NCBI GenBank assembly: GCA_034658815.1
Contig: JAYEFY010000030.1
Coordinates: forward strand, 3,337 to 67,336
Direction of reading: 5' to 3'
Source: Patescibacteria group bacterium
GTDB lineage: Bacteria; Patescibacteriota; Minisyncoccia; Moranbacterales; DUUL01
Length of the DNA: 64,000 nt
The notes beneath the pieces are model-generated. The model was not told where the DNA came from. It saw only the letters and a list, made by a program, of their open reading frames with translations, and did not search any database. The position numbers and the translations under genes were made by a program. Below are positions 2,303 to 63,958 of the stretch, piece by piece; the stretch's first letter is position 1, and each line of letters starts with the position of its first letter.

Positions 2303-3317
2303 GCACATGAAAAAAATTGATCCCAAACTGAACAAATATATCAAAGCACTGGGCAGAATGTCAGAAAAAGAATTAATAATTCGCATGATCAAGCTGGGCG
2401 CTGACATAGAACTTGTTTCAAAAAAGAACCAGCTTTTAAAAATAAAACACAAGGGCAAGAAGAAATACATGATCCTTAATAGATTTTATTTTAACACTAT
2501 TTCAAGCATTATACTCACTAAAAACAAAGAACTCACTAAGATAATATTGGAAGATAATAATTTTAGTATCCCAAGAGGAATAACCGCAAGTGATTTTACA
2601 AACGCAAAAAGAAAGATCAAAGACAACGGTATTGAGTTCCCATTGGTCATAAAGCCGCTTGACGGGATTAAATCGAAAGGTGTGTTCATGAACATTGAAA
2701 ATTTTGCCCGGCTTCAAAGATCGATCGTGGAACTCAGAAACAAGTTCATCGGAAAACAGGACAGCTTTATCGTGGAAGAGGTCGTGCCAGGGAATAATTT
2801 TAGAATTTCAGTGCTGAATGGAAAAATGATCGCGTGCGCGCAAAGAATTCCTGCTCATATTGTCGGAGATGGAAAAATGACAATTAGAGCTCTTATAGAA
2901 AAACACAATAAGCGCGCGGTTAAAACTGTCGGTATTTTTAAAATTCGCATAGATAAGGAAGTCCGTGAAAAATCAAAGCTTGAAAAATTAAGCATGGACT
3001 CTGTGCCGGAAAAAAACAGATTAGTTATATTTAGAGATATTGCCAGTATGGCAACTGGCGGCACGGCGATTGATAAAACAGGTAAAGTCAGCCCGTTTTT
3101 TAAAGAAATTGTTGAAAGCGCCGCAAATATTTTTGGTTTGAATCGAGCCGGTATTGATCTGATAACGGAAGACATTTCTTCAAATGACCCGAAGGCAAAA
3201 TACGCTATCATTGAACTGAACAGTGATCCGGGGATAATGTTTCATGGAAAGCCGGTAATAATCGGAAGAGGCGTGGATGTCGTGAAGAAAACTTTTTTAG
3301 CGTATATGAATTGTTAA
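2292..3317 (+). CDS. cyanophycin-synthetase-like ATP-grasp ligase (standalone CphA N-domain homolog)
   Basis: Matches remembered CphA N-terminal ATP-grasp blocks: FSIPRG, PLVIKPLDGxxxxGV, VLNGKMIACAQRIPAHIVGDG, ATGGTAID, GLNRAGIDLITEDIS and IIELNSDPG. It lacks the C-terminal Mur-ligase-like half. Overlaps the upstream gene by 11 nt. Confidence 0.6.
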   Translation: MPSKHMKKIDPKLNKYIKALGRMSEKELIIRMIKLGADIELVSKKNQLLKIKHKGKKKYMILNRFYFNTISSIILTKNKELTKIILEDNNFSIPRGITASDFTNAKRKIKDNGIEFPLVIKPLDGIKSKGVFMNIENFARLQRSIVELRNKFIGKQDSFIVEEVVPGNNFRISVLNGKMIACAQRIPAHIVGDGKMTIRALIEKHNKRAVKTVGIFKIRIDKEVREKSKLEKLSMDSVPEKNRLVIFRDIASMATGGTAIDKTGKVSPFFKEIVESAANIFGLNRAGIDLITEDISSNDPKAKYAIIELNSDPGIMFHGKPVIIGRGVDVVKKTFLAYMNC

Positions 3318-3412: not shown

Positions 3413-6094
3413 ATGATTGACATTAAGATAAAAATAGCCATACTGTTGATTGTCATTTATTTTCTTGGCAAGCTGATTATAATTAATGAACTTGGCATGA
3501 AAAAGAAAAAAACGAGTAGATCAACGCTGAAGAAAAGCACATTATTGAAATCCAAAAGACCGAAAAAGTTGAAAAAATATAAAAAGTTGAAACTTTTTTT
3601 GATCATTGTTGGAATATCCATGGTCATAGGTATCTTCGGAGTTGTTGGATTATTCATATATTACGCAAAAGATCTTCCTGATCCTGAGAAAGTAAACAGG
3701 CGGGTAATTGCCGAATCGACTAAAATATTTGATAGAACCGGCGAGCATCTTCTTTATGAGATCCATGGCGAGGAAAAAAGAACTATTATTCCGATAGAAG
3801 AAATTCCAGGCACAGTCAGATACGCGACAATTGTTCTTGAAGATCAGATGTTCTATTCACACCACGGGATTGATTTTCGCGGAATTTTACGTGCCGTTAT
3901 GAAAGATGTGCTAAAACGCGAGGCCAGCCAGGGAGGCTCGACTATTACCCAGCAATTCATAAAAAACTCAATTCTCACATCCGAAAAAAAGCTTTCAAGA
4001 AAGATCAAAGAAGTAATACTGGCAATCGAAATTGAGCAGAAATTTGGAAAGGATGACATTTTAAGGATGTACTTGAATGAAATTCCTTACGGTTCAAATG
4101 CCTATGGAATCGAAGCGGCCGCGCAGACATTTTTTGGAGTTCACGCAAAAGAATTAACACTGGTGCAATCAGCGCTTCTGGCATCTCTCCCAAAGGCTCC
4201 AACCTACTATTCTCCCCATGGCTCGCACATAGACAGGCTTCTGTCAAGATGGCGGCACACGCTTGATCAAATGGCTAACCTTGGATATATAACGAAGGAA
4301 CAGGCCGAGGATGCCAAAAACGAAGATATTTTAGCGCAGGTGAAAACATTTAAGGCTGATATAAAAGCGCCTCATTTTGTTCTTTACGTGAAAGAAAAAT
4401 TAGTTGAAGAGTTCGGAGAGGATAAAATTGAAAAGCAGGGACTGAAAGTCATCACCACGCTCGACTGGGATATGCAGCAGCTTGGCGAAAAAGTTATACG
4501 GGAAGGTGTTGAAGAAAACGGAGGCAGGTATGGATTTTCAAACTCTGCTCTAGTGGCTATAAATCCAAAGAACGGACAAGTCCTGGCCATGGTCGGTTCA
4601 AAAGATTATTTTAATGAATCAATTGACGGCAATGTCAATGTTGCCATTCGTCTTCGCCAACCGGGATCATCGTTTAAGCCATATGTTTATGCCCAAGCGT
4701 TTCGCGAGGGCTATCGGCCCGAAACCGTGCTTTTTGATGTTGAAACGGAATTTTCAACGAGTAGCGAGAACAAATACAAGCCTCAAAATTATGATGGATC
4801 ATTTCACGGGCCGGTCAAAATGAAAAACGCGCTGGCAAGGTCGTTGAATATTCCGGCAGTAAAAACACTATATCTTGCCGGTGTAAAAGATTCGATAAAA
4901 CTTGCCAAAGCAATGGGCATTACCTCATTGGATCATCCAAGCAGATATGGATTGGCGCTTGTTCTTGGCGGCGGTGAAGTAAAACTTATTGACCATGTGG
5001 CCGCGTTTTCCGTATTTGCGAATGAAGGGATAAAACATGACCAAAGAGTCATTTTAAAGATTGAGGATAATAATGGCAATATTCTGAATGACTATTCAAA
5101 GTCTGAAGGAAAGCGCGTTCTGGAACAAGAAGTCGCGCTTCAAATTTGTAGTATTTTATCAGATAACAAACTTCGTTCTCCGGCATTTGGCGCGAATAAC
5201 GTGCTGGTTATTCCGGGCAAGACAGTAATGGGCAAGACCGGAACGACAAATGAGTATCGTGACGGATGGCTTGTTGGTTCGTCGCCGTCACTGGCCGCGG
5301 GCGTATGGTCGGGAAATAATGACAATACCGCGATGAAAGCCGGAGCTGCCGGTGTAAATGTCTCCGGACCGACATGGCATAAATTTATGGAGGAAGCGCT
5401 GAAAAACTATCAAGATGAAAAATTTGCCAAGCCGAAGAAACTTGAAAAAACGGACAAACCGGTTCTTGATGGAACGATGAAAATTGTGGATAAGGTGAAG
5501 GTTTGCAAATATAATGATGGAAAATATTGTCTTGCTAATAGCAAATGTCCTGAAAAGAAGGTGAAAAAGAAGAAATATTTTGTCGCGCACAATATTTTGC
5601 ATTATATCGACAAGAATGATCCGCTTGGCGACCAGCCAAAACGTCCAAAAGATGACCCGCAATACAAAAAATGGGAAAGGGCGGTTGAAAGGTGGGGAGA
5701 AAAAAAAGCTGATGGAAAAGGCCGTGATCCCGTGCCTCAAGAAGAATGCAAGGCAAAATATTTCTCTTCTGATTTTTCAAACGTGAAAATTGCTTTTCCA
5801 ACGGATGGAGAGATCATCAATAACCAAATAATAAATATTGAGGCCAGCATTTTTGGTGACGCGAAAATTAAGCAAGTTGACTTTTTTTTCGACGGGGACA
5901 ATATTGGATCGAGAACAAAAACACCATATGAGATAAGCTACACGATCCCTGAATCAAAGAATTATGGAACTTCAATAATAAGGGTAAAAATATACAATGA
6001 AGAAGGCGGCAGTGACGAAGATGAAGTTGAAATTGCCATTGAAATCCCGGACAGCGAATTCAGCGCGGTTTACTCGGCTAATAAGTGGGTGTGA
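3413..6094 (+). CDS. mrcA: penicillin-binding protein 1A (bifunctional transglycosylase/transpeptidase) with Lys/Cys-rich C-terminal extension
   Basis: GT51 motifs EDQMFYSHHGID and RxxxxQGGSTITQQ. Transpeptidase SSFKP (SxxK). One N-terminal TM helix. An alternative start lies at M(3497) MKKKKTSRS. Confidence 0.85.
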   Translation: MIDIKIKIAILLIVIYFLGKLIIINELGMKKKKTSRSTLKKSTLLKSKRPKKLKKYKKLKLFLIIVGISMVIGIFGVVGLFIYYAKDLPDPEKVNRRVIAESTKIFDRTGEHLLYEIHGEEKRTIIPIEEIPGTVRYATIVLEDQMFYSHHGIDFRGILRAVMKDVLKREASQGGSTITQQFIKNSILTSEKKLSRKIKEVILAIEIEQKFGKDDILRMYLNEIPYGSNAYGIEAAAQTFFGVHAKELTLVQSALLASLPKAPTYYSPHGSHIDRLLSRWRHTLDQMANLGYITKEQAEDAKNEDILAQVKTFKADIKAPHFVLYVKEKLVEEFGEDKIEKQGLKVITTLDWDMQQLGEKVIREGVEENGGRYGFSNSALVAINPKNGQVLAMVGSKDYFNESIDGNVNVAIRLRQPGSSFKPYVYAQAFREGYRPETVLFDVETEFSTSSENKYKPQNYDGSFHGPVKMKNALARSLNIPAVKTLYLAGVKDSIKLAKAMGITSLDHPSRYGLALVLGGGEVKLIDHVAAFSVFANEGIKHDQRVILKIEDNNGNILNDYSKSEGKRVLEQEVALQICSILSDNKLRSPAFGANNVLVIPGKTVMGKTGTTNEYRDGWLVGSSPSLAAGVWSGNNDNTAMKAGAAGVNVSGPTWHKFMEEALKNYQDEKFAKPKKLEKTDKPVLDGTMKIVDKVKVCKYNDGKYCLANSKCPEKKVKKKKYFVAHNILHYIDKNDPLGDQPKRPKDDPQYKKWERAVERWGEKKADGKGRDPVPQEECKAKYFSSDFSNVKIAFPTDGEIINNQIINIEASIFGDAKIKQVDFFFDGDNIGSRTKTPYEISYTIPESKNYGTSIIRVKIYNEEGGSDEDEVEIAIEIPDSEFSAVYSANKWV

Positions 6095-10491: not shown

Positions 10492-10497
10492 ACGGCG

Positions 10498-10571
10498 TAG
10501 GTGCAGAGGGAATCGAACCCCCGACCTTCAGCTTAAAAGGCTGTTGCTCTACCTAGCTGAGCTATGCACCC
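10498..10571 (-). tRNA. tRNA-Lys (anticodon UUU)
   Basis: Manual cloverleaf. Acceptor GGGTGCA/TGCACCT with a G1-U72 wobble. D-arm GCTC..GAGC. Anticodon stem CAGC/GCTG with loop CTTTTAA. T-arm GGGGG-TTCGATT-CCCTC. Discriminator A. No encoded CCA. Confidence 0.85.
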
Positions 10572-10841
10572 GAATAAAATTCAAAATTTGAATATCAAAA
10601 TGCAATATGCCGAATAAATGATAACAATTAGGCGAAGTTGGAAACTGCCTGGCACCCGAATAAAATAAAGATAATCCAAAACAACCCATTCTTCATTGTA
10701 CTATAACTTGCGGAAACGTCAATGGAAACGTATAATAGAACTATTCCAAAGCCAACTCTCCCATTCCAAGCTGCTGCCGTTACAGCTTGGAAACACAGTT
10801 CAATGGCGTAGAAAAAGACTTAAACAAATAACTCGAAATAA

Positions 10842-12095
10842 GTGAAGATAAAAAAAATTAAAGCTCATGAAATTCTTGATTCCAGGGGGAATCCAACCGT
10901 TGAGACAACTGTTGTTCTTGAAAGCGGCATAAAAGCAAAAGCGGCTGTGCCATCGGGAGCTTCAATAGGAACAAAAGAAGCCAAGGAGATTCGTGACGGT
11001 GATCAAAACCGTTTTGGCGGAAAAGGTGTTCTTAAAGCGTGCCAAAACGTGGATAGTGTGATCACTCCCGCTTTAATAGATAAAAATGCTGAGGATCAAG
11101 TGGAAATTGACAAAAGAATGCTTCAACTTGATGGAACCGAAAACAAAGAAAAATTAGGAGCAAACGCGATTCTTTCCGTTTCCCTTGCCGTAGCCCGCGC
11201 CGCGGCGGCAAGGAAGAACATACCTCTTTGGAAGCATATTGTTGATGCATTTTCACTTGATCGTAATATTTCATTTCCCATTCCGGGATTTAATGTTATC
11301 AATGGAGGCGCCCATTCAGATAGCGGGCTGGATATTCAAGAATATATGGTCTTGCCTGTTGGACTTGATACATTTGAAAAGCGCTTTCAAGCCGGGTCTG
11401 AGATATACCACATTCTAAGGGAAAGTTTAAAAGAAAAAGGATATAGAGTTGCCATTGGCGACGAAGGAGGATTTGCGCCAAGATTGGAAACAAATCAAGA
11501 GGCATTACAAATAATCATTGGCGCGATAAATAAAAGTAATTATGAATTAGGCGGGGAAATAAAAACAGGTATTGACGCGGCGGCCAGTGAATTCTATGAT
11601 GCTGAAAATAAAACCTATGATCTCGCGCTTGACAAAAAAACGCGCAGCAATGATGATCTGCTGGAAATGCATGAATCGTGGATTGATGAATTTCATATGG
11701 AGGCTATCGAGGATCCAATGAGCGAATTTGATTGGGATGGCTGGATAAAGTGCAATAAGAGAATTGGAAAGAAGGTAGCGATAGTCGGGGATGATCTAAC
11801 AGTCACGAACAAAAAAATTATTCGAGAGGCGCACGAAAGAGACGCGATAAACACAGTTTTAATAAAAGCCAACCAAATCGGCTCATTAACGGAAACTATT
11901 GAAAGTATTAATACGGCTCGTGAGTTTGGCATGAAAATTTTCCTATCGCACCGAAGCGGAGAAACGATTGACGATTTTGTTTCGGATCTTGCGGTAGCGG
12001 TTGCAGCTGACTATGTAAAGTTCGGAGCTCCCGCGAGGGGAGAGCGAGTAAGTAAATACAATAGAATACTTGAAATAGAAAGGTCTCTTCAATAA
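10842..12095 (+). CDS. eno: enolase (GTG start)
   Basis: Canonical KIKKIKAHEILDSRGNPTVE N-terminus with enolase signature blocks throughout. Confidence 0.95.
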   Translation: MKIKKIKAHEILDSRGNPTVETTVVLESGIKAKAAVPSGASIGTKEAKEIRDGDQNRFGGKGVLKACQNVDSVITPALIDKNAEDQVEIDKRMLQLDGTENKEKLGANAILSVSLAVARAAAARKNIPLWKHIVDAFSLDRNISFPIPGFNVINGGAHSDSGLDIQEYMVLPVGLDTFEKRFQAGSEIYHILRESLKEKGYRVAIGDEGGFAPRLETNQEALQIIIGAINKSNYELGGEIKTGIDAAASEFYDAENKTYDLALDKKTRSNDDLLEMHESWIDEFHMEAIEDPMSEFDWDGWIKCNKRIGKKVAIVGDDLTVTNKKIIREAHERDAINTVLIKANQIGSLTETIESINTAREFGMKIFLSHRSGETIDDFVSDLAVAVAADYVKFGAPARGERVSKYNRILEIERSLQ

Positions 12096-12096
12096 C

Positions 12097-13659
12097 ATGA
12101 ATAAGAAAAAAAATCCGATTATTTTCACGATTTTGGATGGTTGGGGAGTGGGTCCAAAAGATAAGGGCATTAATGCCATCGAGGCAGCCAGAACGCCCTT
12201 TTTTGATGATACTGTTGCTAACTGCCCATATACTCAATTGAGCGCGACAGGCATTGATGTCGGGCTGGAGAAGAATCAAATGAGCGGGTCTGAGTCAGGG
12301 CATCTTAATATTGGCGCGGGAAGAATTGTTGAACAAGACGTAAGAATTATTTTGGAAGCAATTGGCAATGAATCATTTTTTAAAAATTCGGCTTTTCTGG
12401 GTGCTGTCCGCCATATGCGGCATTATAATTCAAATATTCATCTGATGGGGCTGCTTGGAAACGAAGACAGTCCTCACGCGCATCCGGATATATTGCTTGC
12501 GCTTCTCATATTTTTGAAAAGACATGGATTAAGCAAGCGTGTTTTTCTGCATTTTTTTACTGATGGAAGAGATTCATATCCAAAAAGCGCCCTTGAACAT
12601 TGGAAATTGTGGAAAGAATTATTAAATGACAAGAAAATTGCAAAGTGCGCAACGGTTTGTGGAAGATTTTACGCCATGGATAGGGTAAAAAACTGGGATA
12701 GATTGCTCAAAGCTTATAACGCAATGGTCAATGGAGAAGGCGAGCGATACGCTCAATTCGAAGATGTTGTTAAAGCAAATTACAAGAAAGGAAAGTTTGA
12801 TGAATATATTGAACCTTCGATTTTAACTGAAAACGGGAAACCTGTTGCCGCGATCACTGATAATGACGCGATCATATTCTTTAATTTTCGCTCAGATAGA
12901 GCGCGGCAAATATCCAAGCTCTTTGTGGGGACGAACACCAAAAAAGAGAAAGGATTTCCGAAAATACCAAAACTCAAGAACTTGTTTTTTGTCGCGATGA
13001 CTAATTTTGGGCCTGACTTGAATCTGGAAACGGCTTTTCGATCGAATCCGCTGGCCGGAACATTACCGGTTGCCTTATCAAGTTTAAGACAACTCTACAT
13101 TGCGGAAACTGAAAAGTTTGCGCATGTGACATATTTTATTAATGGCGGATACGCGGATGCTGTTGGAAGAGAAGATCGTATAATGGTTCGTTCGCCGATT
13201 GTGAGATCATACGCTGAAAAACCTGAAATGTCAGCCGGTGATATTACCGATGTAATTATAAAAAGCATACGTCATGACATATATGATGCCATTGTTGTTA
13301 ATTACGCGAATACTGATATGGTAGGACATACAGGTAATTTTAAGGCAGTTGTTCAGGCGGTTGAATGCGTTGATAAACAGCTGATACGGCTGTCCAAAGC
13401 GCTTAAGAACAAAGATGGCACTCTTGTTATTTCCGCTGATCACGGGAACGCTGATATAATGATAGATAAACAGACGCAAAAAGTATTTACTTTTCATACA
13501 AAGAATCCTGTTCCTTTTGTTATTATTTCCAGCCGGAAAGAAATGAAAAAAAAGAAGCTTCAAAGCGGAGGAGTGCTTGGAAATATCGCACCGACAATTC
13601 TTGATCTGCTCGATCTTCCAAAGCCAAAAGAAATGAACAAAGAGTCGTTAATTAATTAA
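12097..13659 (+). CDS. gpmI: 2,3-bisphosphoglycerate-independent phosphoglycerate mutase
   Basis: iPGM N-terminus IIFTILDGWGVG and metal-binding blocks. It starts 1 nt after the eno stop. Confidence 0.9.
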   Translation: MNKKKNPIIFTILDGWGVGPKDKGINAIEAARTPFFDDTVANCPYTQLSATGIDVGLEKNQMSGSESGHLNIGAGRIVEQDVRIILEAIGNESFFKNSAFLGAVRHMRHYNSNIHLMGLLGNEDSPHAHPDILLALLIFLKRHGLSKRVFLHFFTDGRDSYPKSALEHWKLWKELLNDKKIAKCATVCGRFYAMDRVKNWDRLLKAYNAMVNGEGERYAQFEDVVKANYKKGKFDEYIEPSILTENGKPVAAITDNDAIIFFNFRSDRARQISKLFVGTNTKKEKGFPKIPKLKNLFFVAMTNFGPDLNLETAFRSNPLAGTLPVALSSLRQLYIAETEKFAHVTYFINGGYADAVGREDRIMVRSPIVRSYAEKPEMSAGDITDVIIKSIRHDIYDAIVVNYANTDMVGHTGNFKAVVQAVECVDKQLIRLSKALKNKDGTLVISADHGNADIMIDKQTQKVFTFHTKNPVPFVIISSRKEMKKKKLQSGGVLGNIAPTILDLLDLPKPKEMNKESLIN

Positions 13660-13673
13660 ATAAATTAACACGC

Positions 13674-14684
13674 GTGAAAAAAATAATTTGCATAGGATCC
13701 GTGACCAGGGATATCTTTATTTCGCTAAAAGAAACAAAGATCATTGATACTCCGGAAGATCTCACATCCAAACAACTCATGGGATTTGAGTTTGGCGCGA
13801 AGATATACGCTGACGACTTTAGGGAAGAAGTGGGGGGAAGCGCGGTTAATATTGGATTTGGAATGTTGTTGTGCGGCATAAAGCCTTTTGTGTTTTCAAG
13901 GACATCAAAATCGGAATCCGGAAAATGGATCTTAAAACAAATAGGGAAAATGAAGCTGAAAAAAAATTACATGCAGCGAAACGGTCGAAAAGAAAGCGAA
14001 ACTTCGGTTATTTTAACAGACAAAAAACACAAGGATCATGTTATTTTCAGAACCGGTGATTCGGTTGAATTGTTTGATGTGAAAAAAGCATTAAAAAAAT
14101 TCAGAGAAAAAGTTGATCTTATTTATGTTGGATCTCAAAAAACGGGATGGAACGAGAATTTTTTGGCGATCATTGAATTTGCCGGTAATAAAAAGGCTCC
14201 AGTCGCGTTTAATCCGTCAAGCTACCAAATAGAAAACGATGCCGAAAAGATCGTTAAATTTTTATCCGGTGTTAAGGTACTGCTTGTCAATAAAGACGAG
14301 GCGATTGAACTGGTGAGAAATGTTAACGGTAAAGCCAGTAACGACGTTGCGTATTTAAGCAATCAACTTCTTGGCAAAGGATGCGAAATTGTTGTCATTA
14401 CCGATGGATCGCGGGGCGCGTATGCCGCGGATGACAAAGATCTTTTTCACATTCCAACAAAAACCGTGAAAGTTGTTGATACGGTGGGAGCCGGGGATGC
14501 TTTTGCAAGCGGGTTTTTGTCATCTTTACTGAAAGATAATGATCTTAAAATGTCCCTTGTTTGGGGAGTTGTGAATAGCGCCGGAGCAGTTTCTAAATGC
14601 GGGGCAACAAAAGGTCTTTTAACCGAAAAAGAATTAAGAAACGCGGGAAAGAAACACTTAGGATCAATAAGTAAACTCAGATAA
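13674..14684 (+). CDS. PfkB-family carbohydrate kinase (ribokinase-like; substrate unknown)
   Basis: PfkB signature DTVGAGDAFASGFL. GTG start. Confidence 0.7.
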   Translation: MKKIICIGSVTRDIFISLKETKIIDTPEDLTSKQLMGFEFGAKIYADDFREEVGGSAVNIGFGMLLCGIKPFVFSRTSKSESGKWILKQIGKMKLKKNYMQRNGRKESETSVILTDKKHKDHVIFRTGDSVELFDVKKALKKFREKVDLIYVGSQKTGWNENFLAIIEFAGNKKAPVAFNPSSYQIENDAEKIVKFLSGVKVLLVNKDEAIELVRNVNGKASNDVAYLSNQLLGKGCEIVVITDGSRGAYAADDKDLFHIPTKTVKVVDTVGAGDAFASGFLSSLLKDNDLKMSLVWGVVNSAGAVSKCGATKGLLTEKELRNAGKKHLGSISKLR

Positions 14685-19072: not shown

Positions 19073-19375
19073 AGCTCCGCGTGTTTACGCGCGCAGTTCA
19101 TTATTTCTTAGGCGTAGCAAGATCTGTTGAAGCAGAAGAGCGGCAATATTGTAAATAACGCTCTAATCTCTAACATATAAACTGAAAATTTGTGCCGCGA
19201 ACTTCCTGAATTGATAAGCCATGCAAGCCATACGATTATTGACCGAACTTCAATTTTTCGCTATAGTAAAAGGGAGTTTCGTTATAGCGACTATTCCCAA
19301 ACCGGCTTCATTAGCAAAGATTTTTGGCAGGAGCCGGCTTGGGATCAATTTTTTATAATGACATTTTATGCTCTA

Positions 19376-31952: not shown

Positions 31953-31962
31953 GATAATGAAT

Positions 31963-32155
31963 GTTAGAAATTAGAGCGTTATTTACAATATTGCCACTCT
32001 TTTGTCATCCCGAACGAAATGAGTGAAGTATGAACGAATGAAGTCGAGGGATCACTTCGCGTAAATAAGTTCACGACCAAGGGATTCTTCATCCCGAGTA
32101 CTCGGGACTCAGAATGACAAGGATGAAAGTGTAAACAACGCTAGAGTTTCTTACA
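31963..32155 (+). repeat. palindromic MITE-like repeat element, copy A (expanded, about 193 bp)
   Basis: Imperfect terminal inverted repeats gttagaaattagagcgttatttaca / tgtaaacaacgctagagtttcttac. Internal palindrome cccgagtactcggg. It has an about 88-bp extra segment relative to copy B. Confidence 0.6.
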
Positions 32156-32166
32156 AATTTAGGGCA

Positions 32167-32716: not shown

Positions 32717-33850
32717 TTAGCTCCTATTTTTTTTTATACTCAAACCCCAGCTTTCTCTGGCAAGCTCGCGGGTTTTTTCTATCTCTTTTTTTTCGGGTAA
32801 GGGAAGTGTTTCCATCACTTTCTTGAGTTGAGTTTGATTAAGTTTCACGACCGTGTCCCACAAGTCTTTTTTCTCAAGAATTTCTTTGAGCTTGTCCTCG
32901 TTGTAAGCAAAGGTTTGGCGGTGTGTTTTCGCGACAATTTTGTTCTCTCCGAACAGCCGTTCGACATTTTCTTGCTCCATGATCTCAAGAATTTTTTGCT
33001 GAAGTTCGGCGGCTTTCCTTCGTTCGCTTTTCGCGTTTTCTTGCGCTTTTAAATACTCTTCAATAATTTTCTTTTGCTGTCTGTCATCAAACGTTTCTTC
33101 TTTGAATTTGTGTTTCCACATAGGGCAAATTTTTTGGTGTTCACACCAACCGCACAAAGGACTCATGATGGCAGGGAAGTCCGAATTCTTGATTTGATGA
33201 ATAATTTCCATGACTTCCTTTCGTCCTTTTTGAAGTTCTTCTGTTGTTTTGGTTGAGCTTAATTTTGCTGAATGTCGCAGGAAATACAATGATAAGCTAA
33301 TATTGCCAAGACCGCTTTCTTCTTTTGGATAGCGCTTCAAAAAAGCCAGAAGATAGATCAATAATTGCAAGTTGTCATCAATTGACTTTTGCGGAGGCAT
33401 TTTTTTTGAAGTCTTATAATCAATGATCTCATATCCTTTATCTGTTTTATCGATTCGATCAATAATACCGGAAATAAAATGTTTTTCTTTTGATTCGCTA
33501 TCTTCAAGTTCAATGACGAACCGTGACTCAAGATCAACAATTTTTGCCATGGCCGGGTCATTTTTTTGGTAGTATAGCTGGATAATGTTAATTCCTTGCG
33601 CGAAGGCTGACCGTTCATTTATCTCATCATCGAAAACATCAGGATTCCAATGGGTCGAAAAGTGATTTAGAGCCTCTTTGAGCGATGGATTGGTAAATCC
33701 TCCGCTATGGATAAACTTCATCGTATCATGGATAAGTGTTCCAAATACGGCTTCGGGAGATTTTTTGGTTTTGATCCTGTCGACTACCTGGAATTTATAT
33801 TTTAGCGGGCATGTTTTAAATGTATTGAGCGCGGAGAAAGAAGTATTCAT
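32717..33850 (-). CDS. PD-(D/E)xK nuclease, Cas4/RecB-like with 4-Cys Fe-S motif (standalone)
   Basis: N-terminus TCPLKYKF. Nuclease motifs GIIDRID..EIIDYKTSK. C-terminus CGWCEHQKIC. No neighbouring cas genes. Confidence 0.7.
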   Translation of the reverse strand: MNTSFSALNTFKTCPLKYKFQVVDRIKTKKSPEAVFGTLIHDTMKFIHSGGFTNPSLKEALNHFSTHWNPDVFDDEINERSAFAQGINIIQLYYQKNDPAMAKIVDLESRFVIELEDSESKEKHFISGIIDRIDKTDKGYEIIDYKTSKKMPPQKSIDDNLQLLIYLLAFLKRYPKEESGLGNISLSLYFLRHSAKLSSTKTTEELQKGRKEVMEIIHQIKNSDFPAIMSPLCGWCEHQKICPMWKHKFKEETFDDRQQKKIIEEYLKAQENAKSERRKAAELQQKILEIMEQENVERLFGENKIVAKTHRQTFAYNEDKLKEILEKKDLWDTVVKLNQTQLKKVMETLPLPEKKEIEKTRELARESWGLSIKKNRS

Positions 33851-33912
33851 GGAGTAGTTTAAAATTTACAATTTTTTTAAGCTCGAAAGGGAAGCAGTGC
33901 GACAATATGGTG

Positions 33913-34509
33913 TTATTGCTTTTTTATGTTAATGACAACGCCATATAGTTTTATATCATCATAACACAGCCATCCCATATCACGCGAGTCAAAAGAGTTG
34001 TTTTGATTGTCTCCCAAAACCCAATAGCAGCCGTTTTTATCGATTTCATACAATCTCTTAGTATAGGGACTGTTACCAAGCTAACTCCTACCAAAAATTG
34101 TTAATTTTACCCACAGCTTTGAAAAAAATTATTGCCTATGCTAATGCATAACCAAAAATTTTATTTCTTCTCTGTGAATAAAATTTCCTAGTCCCGAGTA
34201 CTCGGGACTAACGCCTGCCTGCCGGTAGGCAGGGAGCTAGCTCGGAAACAATCCCTGGAGAATTTCATCAGAAGAGACGTTCGGGCAGGTTAGGCAGGAA
34301 AAAACGATAATATCACCCGGTTTCGGCTCTTGTTTCGGATCCACGGTTAATTCGTCACCGTCAGACAAGGTTGGCTCCATTGAGTTGCCGGTTCCCAGAA
34401 AAACATCATATCGATCTGAAGGCAAAAAATAAAAGCCGACTACCAGAAAAGTTACGGCAATAATGAATACAACCAAATAAAATCCTTTTGAAAGTTCTCC
34501 TTCTCTCAT
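33913..34509 (-). pseudogene. lepB: signal peptidase I (LepB/S26) pseudogene with decayed, stop-containing middle section
   Basis: N-fragment 34237..34509 has TM plus GNSMEPTL (Ser box) and GDIIVF. C-fragment 33913..34080 has YWVLGDNQNNSFDSRDMGW (box D/E). Both are in the same frame. They are separated by 156 nt carrying 4 in-frame stops and two perfect palindromes. Confidence 0.55.
34189..34233. repeat. repeat-family core palindrome (tagtcccgagta|ctcgggacta) plus second hairpin (cctgcct-gccggt-aggcagg), copy D
   Basis: A 22-bp perfect palindrome sharing the cccgagtactcggg core with copies A and B. It sits inside the lepB pseudogene. Confidence 0.45.
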
Positions 34510-34793
34510 ATATTTGTAAAGACAGGGAGGGCAGGCGGGGTATAGTTATGATTAGCCATAAAATAACATAAAGAGGCGCTAGAGAGGATAAACACACAAC
34601 GTCGCACAATGTATATTATGCGACTCAACATTCTTTTCTACTGCATCATTCATCATTCCCGGTATTCTATTTGCATTTGCCCTGCGCGCTTTCTTTCTTT
34701 ATTACTATGTTCAGAAAATAAGCAATTAGCATTCAGTAGCGGCTAACTGTGGCAATTGATTGATGTCCAGTGCTACCTACCTACCAGTGGGTT

Positions 34794-35051
34794 TTACTCA
34801 ACCTGGTAATTTTCAACTTGATCTTGCTGAATTTTATTTAGATTAGCTTCAAACTGTTTCATTTGGTTGTTTACTTGATCCTCAATCTGTTTTACTTGAT
34901 CCTCAGCTTGTTTTTTTGTTTCAACCGCAGTCCGGTAGCGGTTTGAATAATAAGTACCCGCTAAAACCATAATTATTGCCAAAACAAGCAATAAAATAAT
35001 CAGAGCAAACCCATTTTGATTTTTGTCTTTTGTAAATTTAGAAGTTCTCAT
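34794..35051 (-). CDS. small membrane-anchored coiled-coil protein
   Basis: One TM helix followed by a Q/E/K-rich helical tail. Confidence 0.3.
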   Translation of the reverse strand: MRTSKFTKDKNQNGFALIILLLVLAIIMVLAGTYYSNRYRTAVETKKQAEDQVKQIEDQVNNQMKQFEANLNKIQQDQVENYQVE

Positions 35052-38137: not shown

Positions 38138-38147
38138 AAACTCATTT

Positions 38148-38256
38148 GTTAGAAATTAGAGCGTTATTTACAATATTGCTGCTCTCTTGCCATCCCGAGT
38201 ACTCGGGACTCAAAATGACAAGGATGAAAGTGTAAACAACGCTGGGGTTTCTTACA
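38148..38256 (+). repeat. palindromic MITE-like repeat element, copy B (compact, about 109 bp)
   Basis: Same TIRs and core palindrome as copy A. It fills the whole gap between the NUDIX stop and the gltX start. Confidence 0.6.
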
Positions 38257-43397: not shown

Positions 43398-43417
43398 TTT
43401 TTAATATCTTTTAAAAT

Positions 43418-43446
43418 GTTAGAAACCCCAGCGTTGTTTACACTTT
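43418..43446 (-). repeat. solo terminal repeat of the MITE-like family, copy C
   Basis: The reverse complement aaagtgtaaacaacgctggggtttctaac equals the right TIR of copy B. It lies 21 nt upstream of the rfbD start. Confidence 0.45.
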
Positions 43447-43517
43447 AATACTCAATACTCAATGATTGAACATTAAAACATTGATTATTGGATATTAAGC
43501 CATGCTCATCTATTCTA

Positions 43518-63333: not shown

Positions 63334-63558
63334 TTTCTAAATAAAGGATACGAGTTGCCCTTCAGTACGGCGGACAGGCAAACTCGGATCAGCGCGTGAA
63401 ATTTTTGAGGAGATAAAAGAAGCCACCAACCGGATTTCCGACTGGTGGCTAATTTAACACATTGAATGTTGTTCAATAATCAAAAAACGATAATTCTACC
63501 GCAGGCGGCCATAAGCGCCATTTTTTGATGACAGTCAGGCTTTTTACAGACTTTTCTG

Positions 63559-63835
63559 CTTTACCGGCGGCAACGCCGATGGCAGAAAATATATTCCCTC
63601 CCGCTTTACCGGTGGCAACGCCGATGATAGAAGCGATAATATCCTTTTCCGCTTTACCGGTGGCAACGCCGATGAAAGAAAATATATCCCCTCCCGCTTC
63701 ACCAGTGGCAACGCCGACGGCAGAAGCGATATTCTTTCCCGCTTTACCGATAGCAACGCCGATGAAAGAAAATATATTCCCTCCCGCTTTACCGGTGGCA
63801 ACGCCAATGACAGAAAATATATCTTCCCCTGCCCG
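63559..63835. repeat. tandem repeat, 6 units of 45-49 bp (ctttaccggtggcaacgccgatg + a similar variable half)
   Basis: Units read directly. The period is 15 codons. ORFs are open on both strands (+: ALPVATPMxENIxPP; -: LPPVKREGIYFLSSA). Confidence 0.7.
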
Positions 63836-63958
63836 AGTGCTAACTATCGATCCTATGGAATAGATGTTCTTTGCTTCGTTACAAAAGCTAATGAAGCAAA
63901 AAATATTGCCATTTGGAGCATTCCTCCCGATAAGAGATACTTTGCTGTCACCTATATT

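Follow-up and report, generated by a model that had tools for sequence, protein, structure and literature searches.

A small mobile element that appears to have recently interrupted a mini-S26 peptidase gene in a Patescibacteria genome

The metagenome-assembled genome (MAG) GCA_034658815.1 of a Patescibacteria group bacterium carries, on contig JAYEFY010000030.1, a gene for a small signal peptidase I-like protein of the S26 family (mini-S26), whose coding sequence is interrupted by a segment of 195 nucleotides (nt) resembling a miniature inverted-repeat transposable element (MITE). The 64-kb stretch of this contig that was analysed is called the window throughout. On its minus strand a single frame holds two fragments, one with the Ser box (34237-34509) and the other with the Lys box and box E (33913-34080). 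The translation of 33913-34509 reads MREGEL...GNSMEPTL...GDIIVF...QGLFPS up to a stop, passes through a stop-bearing stretch and resumes as LGNSPYTKRLYEIDKNGCYWVLGDNQNNSFDSRDMGW...KKQ before the terminal stop, with four in-frame stops along the way. Its N-terminal piece is MREGELSKGFYLVVFIIAVTFLVVGFYFLPSDRYDVFLGTGNSMEPTLSDGDELTVDPKQEPKPGDIIVFSCLTCPNVSSDEILQGLFPS and its C-terminal piece LGNSPYTKRLYEIDKNGCYWVLGDNQNNSFDSRDMGWLCYDDIKLYGVVINIKKQ, each closed by a stop, with three further stops between them. Each fragment separately matches Pfam Peptidase_S26 above cutoff, and a profile of the intact family matches both (E = 1e-25 and 1e-26). A first-pass annotation of the sequence had placed the fragments in the same frame, separated by four stops and 156 nt, which our analysis bears out (34236 to 34081, counted from the base after the first stop through the last stop). 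That figure is a stop-to-stop distance; the foreign segment itself is longer, at 195 nt (34064-34258). The features of the interrupted gene are as follows:

34259..34509, minus strand: 5' part of the mini-S26 (signal peptidase I-like) gene, from its translation and Pfam S24/S26 matches
34064..34258, minus strand: inserted non-coding mobile element, MITE-like, 195 nt, absent at the orthologous site of the sister genome (alignment A1)
34237..34239, minus strand: first in-frame stop (TAG), inside the terminal repeat of the element
33913..34063, minus strand: 3' part of the mini-S26 gene, from its translation and a Pfam S26 match

The 5' part begins with an ATG, encodes an N-terminal hydrophobic anchor, the Ser box GNSMEPTL (at about 34389, agreeing with the G-x-S-M-x-P-T pattern of the Ser nucleophile box) and a GDIIVF box, and ends at the second base of codon L84. 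The 3' part supplies the third base of that codon, followed by TKRL with the invariant Lys-Arg pair, GDNQNNSFDSRD (box E) and the stop codon. Using as query the reconstructed protein, with the stretch between the terminal inverted repeats taken out, we recovered an intact ortholog (P0001) of 133 amino acids (aa), 83% identical over 100% of the query, which is encoded on contig L001 of the sister MAG GCA_030626045.1 (isolate CSMAG_106). Window and L001 have the same order of genes, namely those for an 85-aa protein, S26, PDDEXK_1 and ArsP_1, and their DNA alignment (A1) is colinear at about 85% identity with a single gap of 195 nt, corresponding to window 34064-34258. The 5' gene part aligns without gaps to L001 886-1136 and the 3' part, likewise gap-free, to L001 1137-1287. 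The fragments are accordingly the halves of one ancestral S26 gene, as the first-pass annotation had proposed, and its alternative of two unrelated small genes is removed by this collinear 133-aa ortholog.

The insert separates codon L84 from codon T85, two codons ahead of the catalytic Lys in the invariant pair K86-R87, and its junctions are unambiguous, with ..GAAATTCT on one side and TAC(T/C)AAGAGA.. on the other. The empty site of the ortholog, GAAATTCT joined to TACCAAG, corresponds to a filled site in the window in which the same GAAATTCT is followed by the 195 nt and then by TACTAAG. Over a longer stretch the ortholog has GATGAAATTCT running directly into TACCAAGAGATTG, whereas in the window GATGAAATTCT is separated by the 195 nt from TACTAAGAGATTG. 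No gene bases are deleted, replaced or duplicated at the insertion in A1, and the earlier suspicion that the middle of the gene had been replaced gives way to a clean insertion of 195 nt that left the gene sequence complete. Seamless removal of the element would join ...GAAATTCT to TACTAAGAGA..., and its deletion in silico yields an open reading frame (ORF) of 133 aa, the length of the ortholog, which reads ...SSDEILTKRLYEID... in one notation and ...SSDEILTKRLYEIDKNG... in the other. We consider it highly probable (about 0.85) that the mini-S26 gene was inactivated by insertion of this MITE-like element without target duplication.

The first-pass annotation had described the gene as decayed, and an old pseudogene in gradual decay, its middle replaced by repeat sequence, would indeed leave four in-frame stops between recognisable halves. 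This account is highly improbable, for all four stops fall within one 195-nt insertion, every coding base of the ortholog has a counterpart in the window, and alignment A1 refutes it. The 402 nt of gene sequence around the insert are free of stops and frameshifts, despite a synonymous divergence (dS) of 0.85 between window and sister, and the ratio of nonsynonymous to synonymous divergence (dN/dS) is 0.10 (0.145 in the N part and 0.029 in the C part). The neighbouring genes give similar ratios (0.06 for the PD-(D/E)XK nuclease, 0.16 for ArsP and 0.17 for the 85-aa protein). Because both halves are still open, and because the signature of purifying selection equals that of the neighbouring genes, we favor a single recent insertion over an old pseudogene. 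That no relaxation of selection is detectable suggests either that the insertion is much younger than the split of the two genomes or that the gene is still functional.

The first stop gives rise to a product of 90 aa, which runs through L84 and ends in QGLFPS without reaching the catalytic Lys. These last six codons of the N-terminal fragment, like the first six of the open C-terminal segment (LGNSPY), are element sequence and not peptidase. In the public annotation the 90-aa product appears as an ordinary coding sequence (CDS), P0002 'MAG: S24 family peptidase [Patescibacteria group bacterium]'. The assembled allele contains no uninterrupted ORF with both Ser and Lys, as stops intervene between codons 84 and 85. 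In the 3' half no in-frame start precedes K86, the first being a TTG at 34053, after the Lys codon, and the fragment has no membrane anchor; a split enzyme made of two polypeptides is ruled out on these grounds. Given the early stop and the lack of a start before the Lys codon, the assembled allele would yield only a membrane-anchored stub of 90 aa, which retains the Ser and is devoid of the Lys general base and box E. As far as its reading frames tell, an enzyme with a Ser/Lys dyad cannot be made from this allele, whether whole or in two pieces, and the peptidase activity has presumably been lost. We propose that a small non-autonomous and non-coding element, with imperfect 24-nt terminal repeats and internal hairpins, transposed into the mini-S26 coding sequence and landed cleanly after codon 84, two codons short of the catalytic Lys. 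Translation would then halt six codons into the element to leave the 90-aa stub, and the loss of the gene may have been tolerated if mini-S26 is, as we suppose, an accessory paralog and LepB proper does the housekeeping work.

The boundaries of the element were set by the ortholog alignment, independently of its terminal repeats, and the features between them are these:

34233..34256, minus strand: terminal inverted repeat, 5' arm in the sense of the gene, AGGGATTGTTTCCGAGCTAGCTCC, 2 nt inside the boundary
34214..34233, no strand assigned: GC-rich hairpin CCTGCCTGCCGGTAGGCAGG, adjoining the terminal repeat and paired in the RNA fold
34189..34210, no strand assigned: perfect 22-nt palindrome TAGTCCCGAGTACTCGGGACTA, from an inverted-repeat search
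34093..34186, no strand assigned: AT-rich backbone forming a long imperfect hairpin, from inverted repeats and the fold; the part best conserved with the sister copy
34065..34088, plus strand: terminal inverted repeat, other arm, AGGGACTGTTACCAAGCTAACTCC as read on the plus strand, 1 nt inside the boundary

The two arms form an imperfect repeat of 24 nt, in which 20 of the 24 positions pair by Watson-Crick rules and 23 of the 24 if G-U pairs on the sense strand are admitted. Terminal repeats equally good were found in only 16 of 200,000 random 195-nt segments of the window, and with three mismatches allowed the pattern occurs in the window at these two places only (0 expected). The element starts with CCAGG, finishes with CCCTA, has a GC content of 41.5% and contains stops in all six frames, four of them in the frame of the host gene. 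The palindrome and the second hairpin between the fragments (34189-34210 and 34214-34233) had been recognized in the first-pass annotation and are both present. The palindrome is followed on the sense strand by GAAATTTTAT, and the combination scores as terminator-like (minus strand, 34211-34188). The sense-strand RNA (201 nt) folds with a minimum free energy of -93.8 kcal/mol (z = -10.9) into a structure closed by the terminal arms. A scan of 33700-34700 against Rfam (E <= 10) returned only noise (FasX, miRNA and snoRNA models, the best at E = 0.8 and far below gathering scores), and no known ribozyme, intron or small RNA family in Rfam fits the element.

The terminal-repeat pattern was also sought in one genome for each of 185,579 species (GTDB), and a single matching locus emerged, on contig L002 of the same sister MAG, GCA_030626045.1. 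This second copy starts one base past the CCA end of a tRNA-Lys(TTT) gene, opening at 4226 with the arm TAGG-ACTGTTTCCAAGCTAACTCC, and is cut short by the end of the contig. At 88% identity, L002 shares synteny with window 10497-14599, where the tRNA-Lys gene (10497-10571) is followed by a terminator hairpin and not by an element. The empty sites are hence reciprocal, the sister having an uninterrupted S26 gene and the window an element-free tRNA-Lys site; since the second copy occupies a site that is empty in the window, the element is mobile. Between the two copies the terminal repeat differs by one mismatch and one indel in 25 positions, and the backbone agrees at 14/14 positions in TACCAAAAATTGTT and at 38/39 in CACAGC...GCATA, with 95% identity between L002 4319-4360 and window 34109-34150. 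Entire GC-hairpin modules distinguish the copies. The backbones are thus about 95-97% identical as against about 85-88% for the surrounding genomes, and copies more alike than the genomes that hold them are the signature expected of recent transposition. The left flanks (..CTTAGTA and ..CCTACCAA) have no motif in common. Neither the JGI metagenomes nor IMG/VR contained a match to the terminal-repeat pattern (0 in each), and two JGI metagenome matches to an internal 23-mer were set aside as chance, one of them lying in a Lon-like protease gene as read from its sequence.

The sister locus has a further peculiarity, in that the promoter region and the first ~13 nt of tRNA-Lys(TTT) are repeated three times upstream of the tRNA (L002 3880-4224), the first two repeats running into GC hairpins and then into ..GGCAGTTTCCAACTTCGCG... 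One such partial repeat is found in the window at ~10575-10660 (minus strand). Such repeats may be left over from an integration event, or from successive insertions, at the tRNA gene.

As the source is a MAG (so labelled in the annotation of P0002), an assembly artefact or a minority-strain allele has to be weighed, whereby the dominant population would be intact and a repeat copy would have been threaded into the gene by the assembler. That repeats upset assembly in this lineage is seen from the sister copy, at which its contig breaks off. Against this, both junctions are base-exact with no gene sequence lost, and an artefact would need reads across both gene-element junctions; the element is, moreover, single-copy within the 64-kb window, so that no nearby repeat was available to collapse. 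We regard such an origin as unlikely.

Several observations sit uneasily with a plain insertional knockout. No target-site duplication is found in any junction register, nor with several plausible ancestral codon variants, even though the insertion appears to be young, which is unusual for a classical MITE. A direct repeat of 9 nt, ACAATCTCT / ACAATCCCT, was considered as a candidate and is out of register with the junctions, for which reason we take it as chance. The length of the insert is divisible by three, as would happen by chance in one case out of three, and it adjoins the motif that is most strongly conserved in the gene, a placement shared with homing introns and inteins. The copies found number two in total, one of them cut by a contig end. 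Of the four mismatches between the arms, three could pair as G-U on the sense strand, against none on the antisense strand (P about 1/8), a weak hint of constraint at the level of RNA. Finally, the undiminished signature of purifying selection is equally compatible with a gene that still functions. Together these points weigh against the reading that we prefer.

They bring into view a different possibility, in which the element would be an intervening sequence, excised from the RNA or, in part of the population, precisely from the DNA as an on/off switch, so that selection would continue to act on a functional mini-S26. A length divisible by three, with exact removal restoring the ORF, a site two codons from the invariant Lys, a dN/dS that is not elevated and the mismatches that pair as G-U on the sense strand (3/4) would all suit it, as would paired arms that bring the two gene halves together in a fold of z = -10.9. 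Without a target duplication, seamless excision is also chemically conceivable. Against it, there is no match to a ribozyme or intron family in Rfam; the element ends in A and not in the G of group I, with no group II boundary motifs; inspection of the fold revealed no bulge-helix-bulge geometry at the junctions, where only 1 nt extends past the closing stem; and at 195 nt it is far longer than known translational bypass, for which the type of T4 gene 60 is an unfit model. Furthermore, no other member interrupted at this position occurs among 769 homolog clusters, the second copy is intergenic and next to a tRNA gene, which is transposon behavior, and a recent insertion explains the low dN/dS equally well. 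An intervening sequence thus appears improbable, and we retain insertional inactivation by a mobile element.

The first-pass annotation had also linked the palindrome to a MITE-like repeat family of the window. Part of this holds, as the 18-nt core of the palindrome, TCCCGAGTACTCGGGACT (window 34192-34209), recurs at 32092-32109 and 38193-38210 within copies of that other family; no matches to the core are expected in shuffled sequence. The insert is nevertheless not a copy of the family, as its terminal repeats are different and the 18-nt core is the only sequence common to the two. In IMG/VR, three viral contigs contain the core (L005, L006 and L007), roughly as many as chance would give. 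In the sister copy of the element the same backbone bears, at another place, a distinct small hairpin (TCCCGCTTAGCGGGACT, L002 4294-4310), and an extra CTGCC..GGCAG hairpin comes after the terminal repeat. Small GC hairpin modules therefore seem to move in and out of AT-rich element backbones.

The other family itself is bounded by 26-nt terminal repeats, TGTAAGAAACTCTAGCGTTGTTTACA and TGTTAGAAATTAGAGCGTTATTTACA, and is represented in the window by copies at 31962-32156 and 38146-38256, in addition to two solo terminal repeats (19133-19176 and 43412-43452). The first copy, situated just upstream of ArsP_1, is missing from L001, where the empty site is near 3084-3098. Its flanks form an imperfect direct repeat, TTCATTRYCCTAAAT(T), of unusual length (15-16 bp), through which the ATG start of ArsP_1 and the bases directly upstream are duplicated. 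The copy at 38146 is missing an internal segment of 80 nt.

Turning to the interrupted gene, the name lepB given to it earlier has some support, as the reconstructed 133-aa protein passes TIGR02227 marginally (50.2 against a cutoff of 47). PF10502 scores 51.2 against 22.9 with a 145-aa concatenate of the open fragments, which includes 12 element-derived residues. The models for nickel-SOD maturation protease and archaeal signal peptidase detect a resemblance below their cutoffs. A HMMER search with the ortholog recovered 769 clusters at E <= 1e-3, 74 of them at E <= 1e-10, and the best matches are nearly all proteins of 107-150 aa that align in one continuous stretch. The few matches whose source is named come from Moranbacteria or Patescibacteria and are labelled "S24/S26 family peptidase" or "signal peptidase I". 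Across the 22 proteins of the family that are aligned in A3, the residues K86, R87, G101, D102, N103, S107, D109 and S110, and also G41, M44 and P46, are invariant, with S43 nearly so; C72 is nearly invariant and Cys is frequent at three further positions. None of the members in A3 has extra sequence at the insertion point, and among the 769 homolog clusters no other is broken at this position, the sole fragment ending at residue 84 being that of the window. These relationships place the gene in a distinct mini-S26 family of about 107-150 aa, found mostly in Patescibacteria, and in this respect the name lepB is a generous one.

Mini-S26 resembles LepB/SipS (MEROPS S26A, TIGR02227) in its N-terminal membrane anchor, SMxPT Ser box, K-R Lys box and GDNxxxSxDSR box E. 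It differs from them in being only 133 aa long, with almost nothing between boxes C, D and E and without the GxPGD part of box D, in its richness in Cys at family positions, in its NCBI name ('S24/S26 family peptidase') and in having relatives that form a separate set of 107-150 aa. From its size, its naming and the marginal TIGR02227 score we infer that mini-S26 is an accessory paralog and not the housekeeping or sole LepB. A motif and profile search revealed no other S26 gene in the 64-kb window. Two mini-S26 genes on contigs of 0.7-1.3 Mb have neighborhoods that lack conservation, except for a nearby ArsP_1 in one of them, and these gave no clue to the substrate.

Around the interrupted gene the window has two neighbors that deserve mention, the first of which is:

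32717..33850, minus strand: downstream PD-(D/E)XK nuclease gene, from its ORF; gene order kept in L001

This gene probably shares a transcription unit with the mini-S26 gene, and the terminator-like hairpin of the element may have a polar effect that reduces its expression. On the other side, upstream of the peptidase gene, the 85-aa protein (34794-35051, minus strand) has an N-terminal pilin-like motif, in which ..KDKNQNG is followed by FALIILLLVLAIIMVLAG.., and a Gln/Glu-rich coiled-coil-like tail; it is conceivable that this protein is a substrate or partner of mini-S26. Far from the locus, at 63551-63866, six 45-nt units (CTTTACCGGTGGCAACGCCGATG...) are arranged in tandem in what is probably a repeat-containing coding region.

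The filled and empty sites in the two sister genomes provide base-exact evidence of ongoing movement of small non-autonomous elements in a Patescibacteria genome, a point of some interest in genomes of such small size. Two mobile families are involved: one inserts without target duplication, and the second, an unrelated MITE 2 kb away, is likewise a window-specific insertion. For annotation the immediate consequence is that the 90-aa stub, recorded as an ordinary "S24 family peptidase" CDS, merits a disrupted-gene flag. The disrupted gene also draws attention to a little-described family of mini-S26 peptidases of 107-150 aa. Current understanding is unchanged by the case, which would become more important if the element were removable or if the gene were the only signal peptidase of the organism. 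Were the element seamlessly removable, mini-S26 would stay under selection as a switchable gene, and the element would represent a new small intervening sequence or genetic switch in bacteria of the candidate phyla radiation (CPR).

Prokaryotic MITEs are defined as non-coding sequences of <500 bp with terminal inverted repeats of ~4-30 bp and, when young, flanking direct repeats, which further show several copies, mobility, a stable stem-loop transcript and a related autonomous insertion sequence (IS) acting in trans (PMC10969869, section 2.1). Small non-autonomous elements that disable genes are well known from both bacteria and archaea, examples being MITEaba12 in hns of Acinetobacter, the Correia elements of Neisseria, insertions in the mcy genes of Anabaena and a type II MITE in pyrE of Sulfolobus (PMC10969869). 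Like these, the 195-nt element is short and non-coding, has terminal repeats and a stable stem-loop, truncates a coding sequence and varies in presence between relatives. Unlike them, it is without a target-site duplication despite its youth, has two known copies and resides in a host of the Patescibacteria (CPR); no related autonomous IS came to light, the terminal-repeat pattern occurring nowhere else in the window. In the literature searched for MITEs in the CPR no MITE report was found, the match there concerning, by its title and abstract, diversity-generating retroelements (DGRs). The element is MITE-like rather than a typical MITE, since its size, terminal repeats, non-coding nature, structure and mobility conform to the definition and the target-site duplication does not. 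Because this duplication is absent, a classical MITE mobilized by DDE-type cut-and-paste is argued against, which points to a transposition chemistry without staggered target cuts.

The element also recalls the Rickettsia palindromic elements (RPEs), being palindromic, within the ~150-200 bp range, inside an ORF and of a length that is a multiple of three. RPEs, however, are open in the frame of the host and are translated within the protein, whereas the 195-nt element puts four stops into that frame and is interrupted by stops in all six. As regards introns, group I introns have G at their 3' end and group II introns follow GUGYG...AY. With its boundaries CCAGG...CCCTA the element is unfit for either, and it has no match to RF00028 or to group II models (E <= 10).

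Palindrome-associated elements derived from IS200/IS605, and those of the REP/RAYT type, insert without target duplication, can be excised seamlessly and are rich in GC hairpins. They are devoid of long terminal inverted repeats, and their insertion takes place on the 3' side of a fixed tetra- or pentanucleotide; the IS200/IS605 type has subterminal hairpins at both of its ends. The 195-nt element is similar to these systems in the lack of target duplication and in a palindrome module (TCCCG..CGGGACT) that occurs in different backbones, while it departs from IS200/IS605 in its 24-nt terminal repeats, in GC hairpins at one end only and in flanks that differ between the copies. It is a new family of elements, and its insertion into a gene is a phenomenon of known type.

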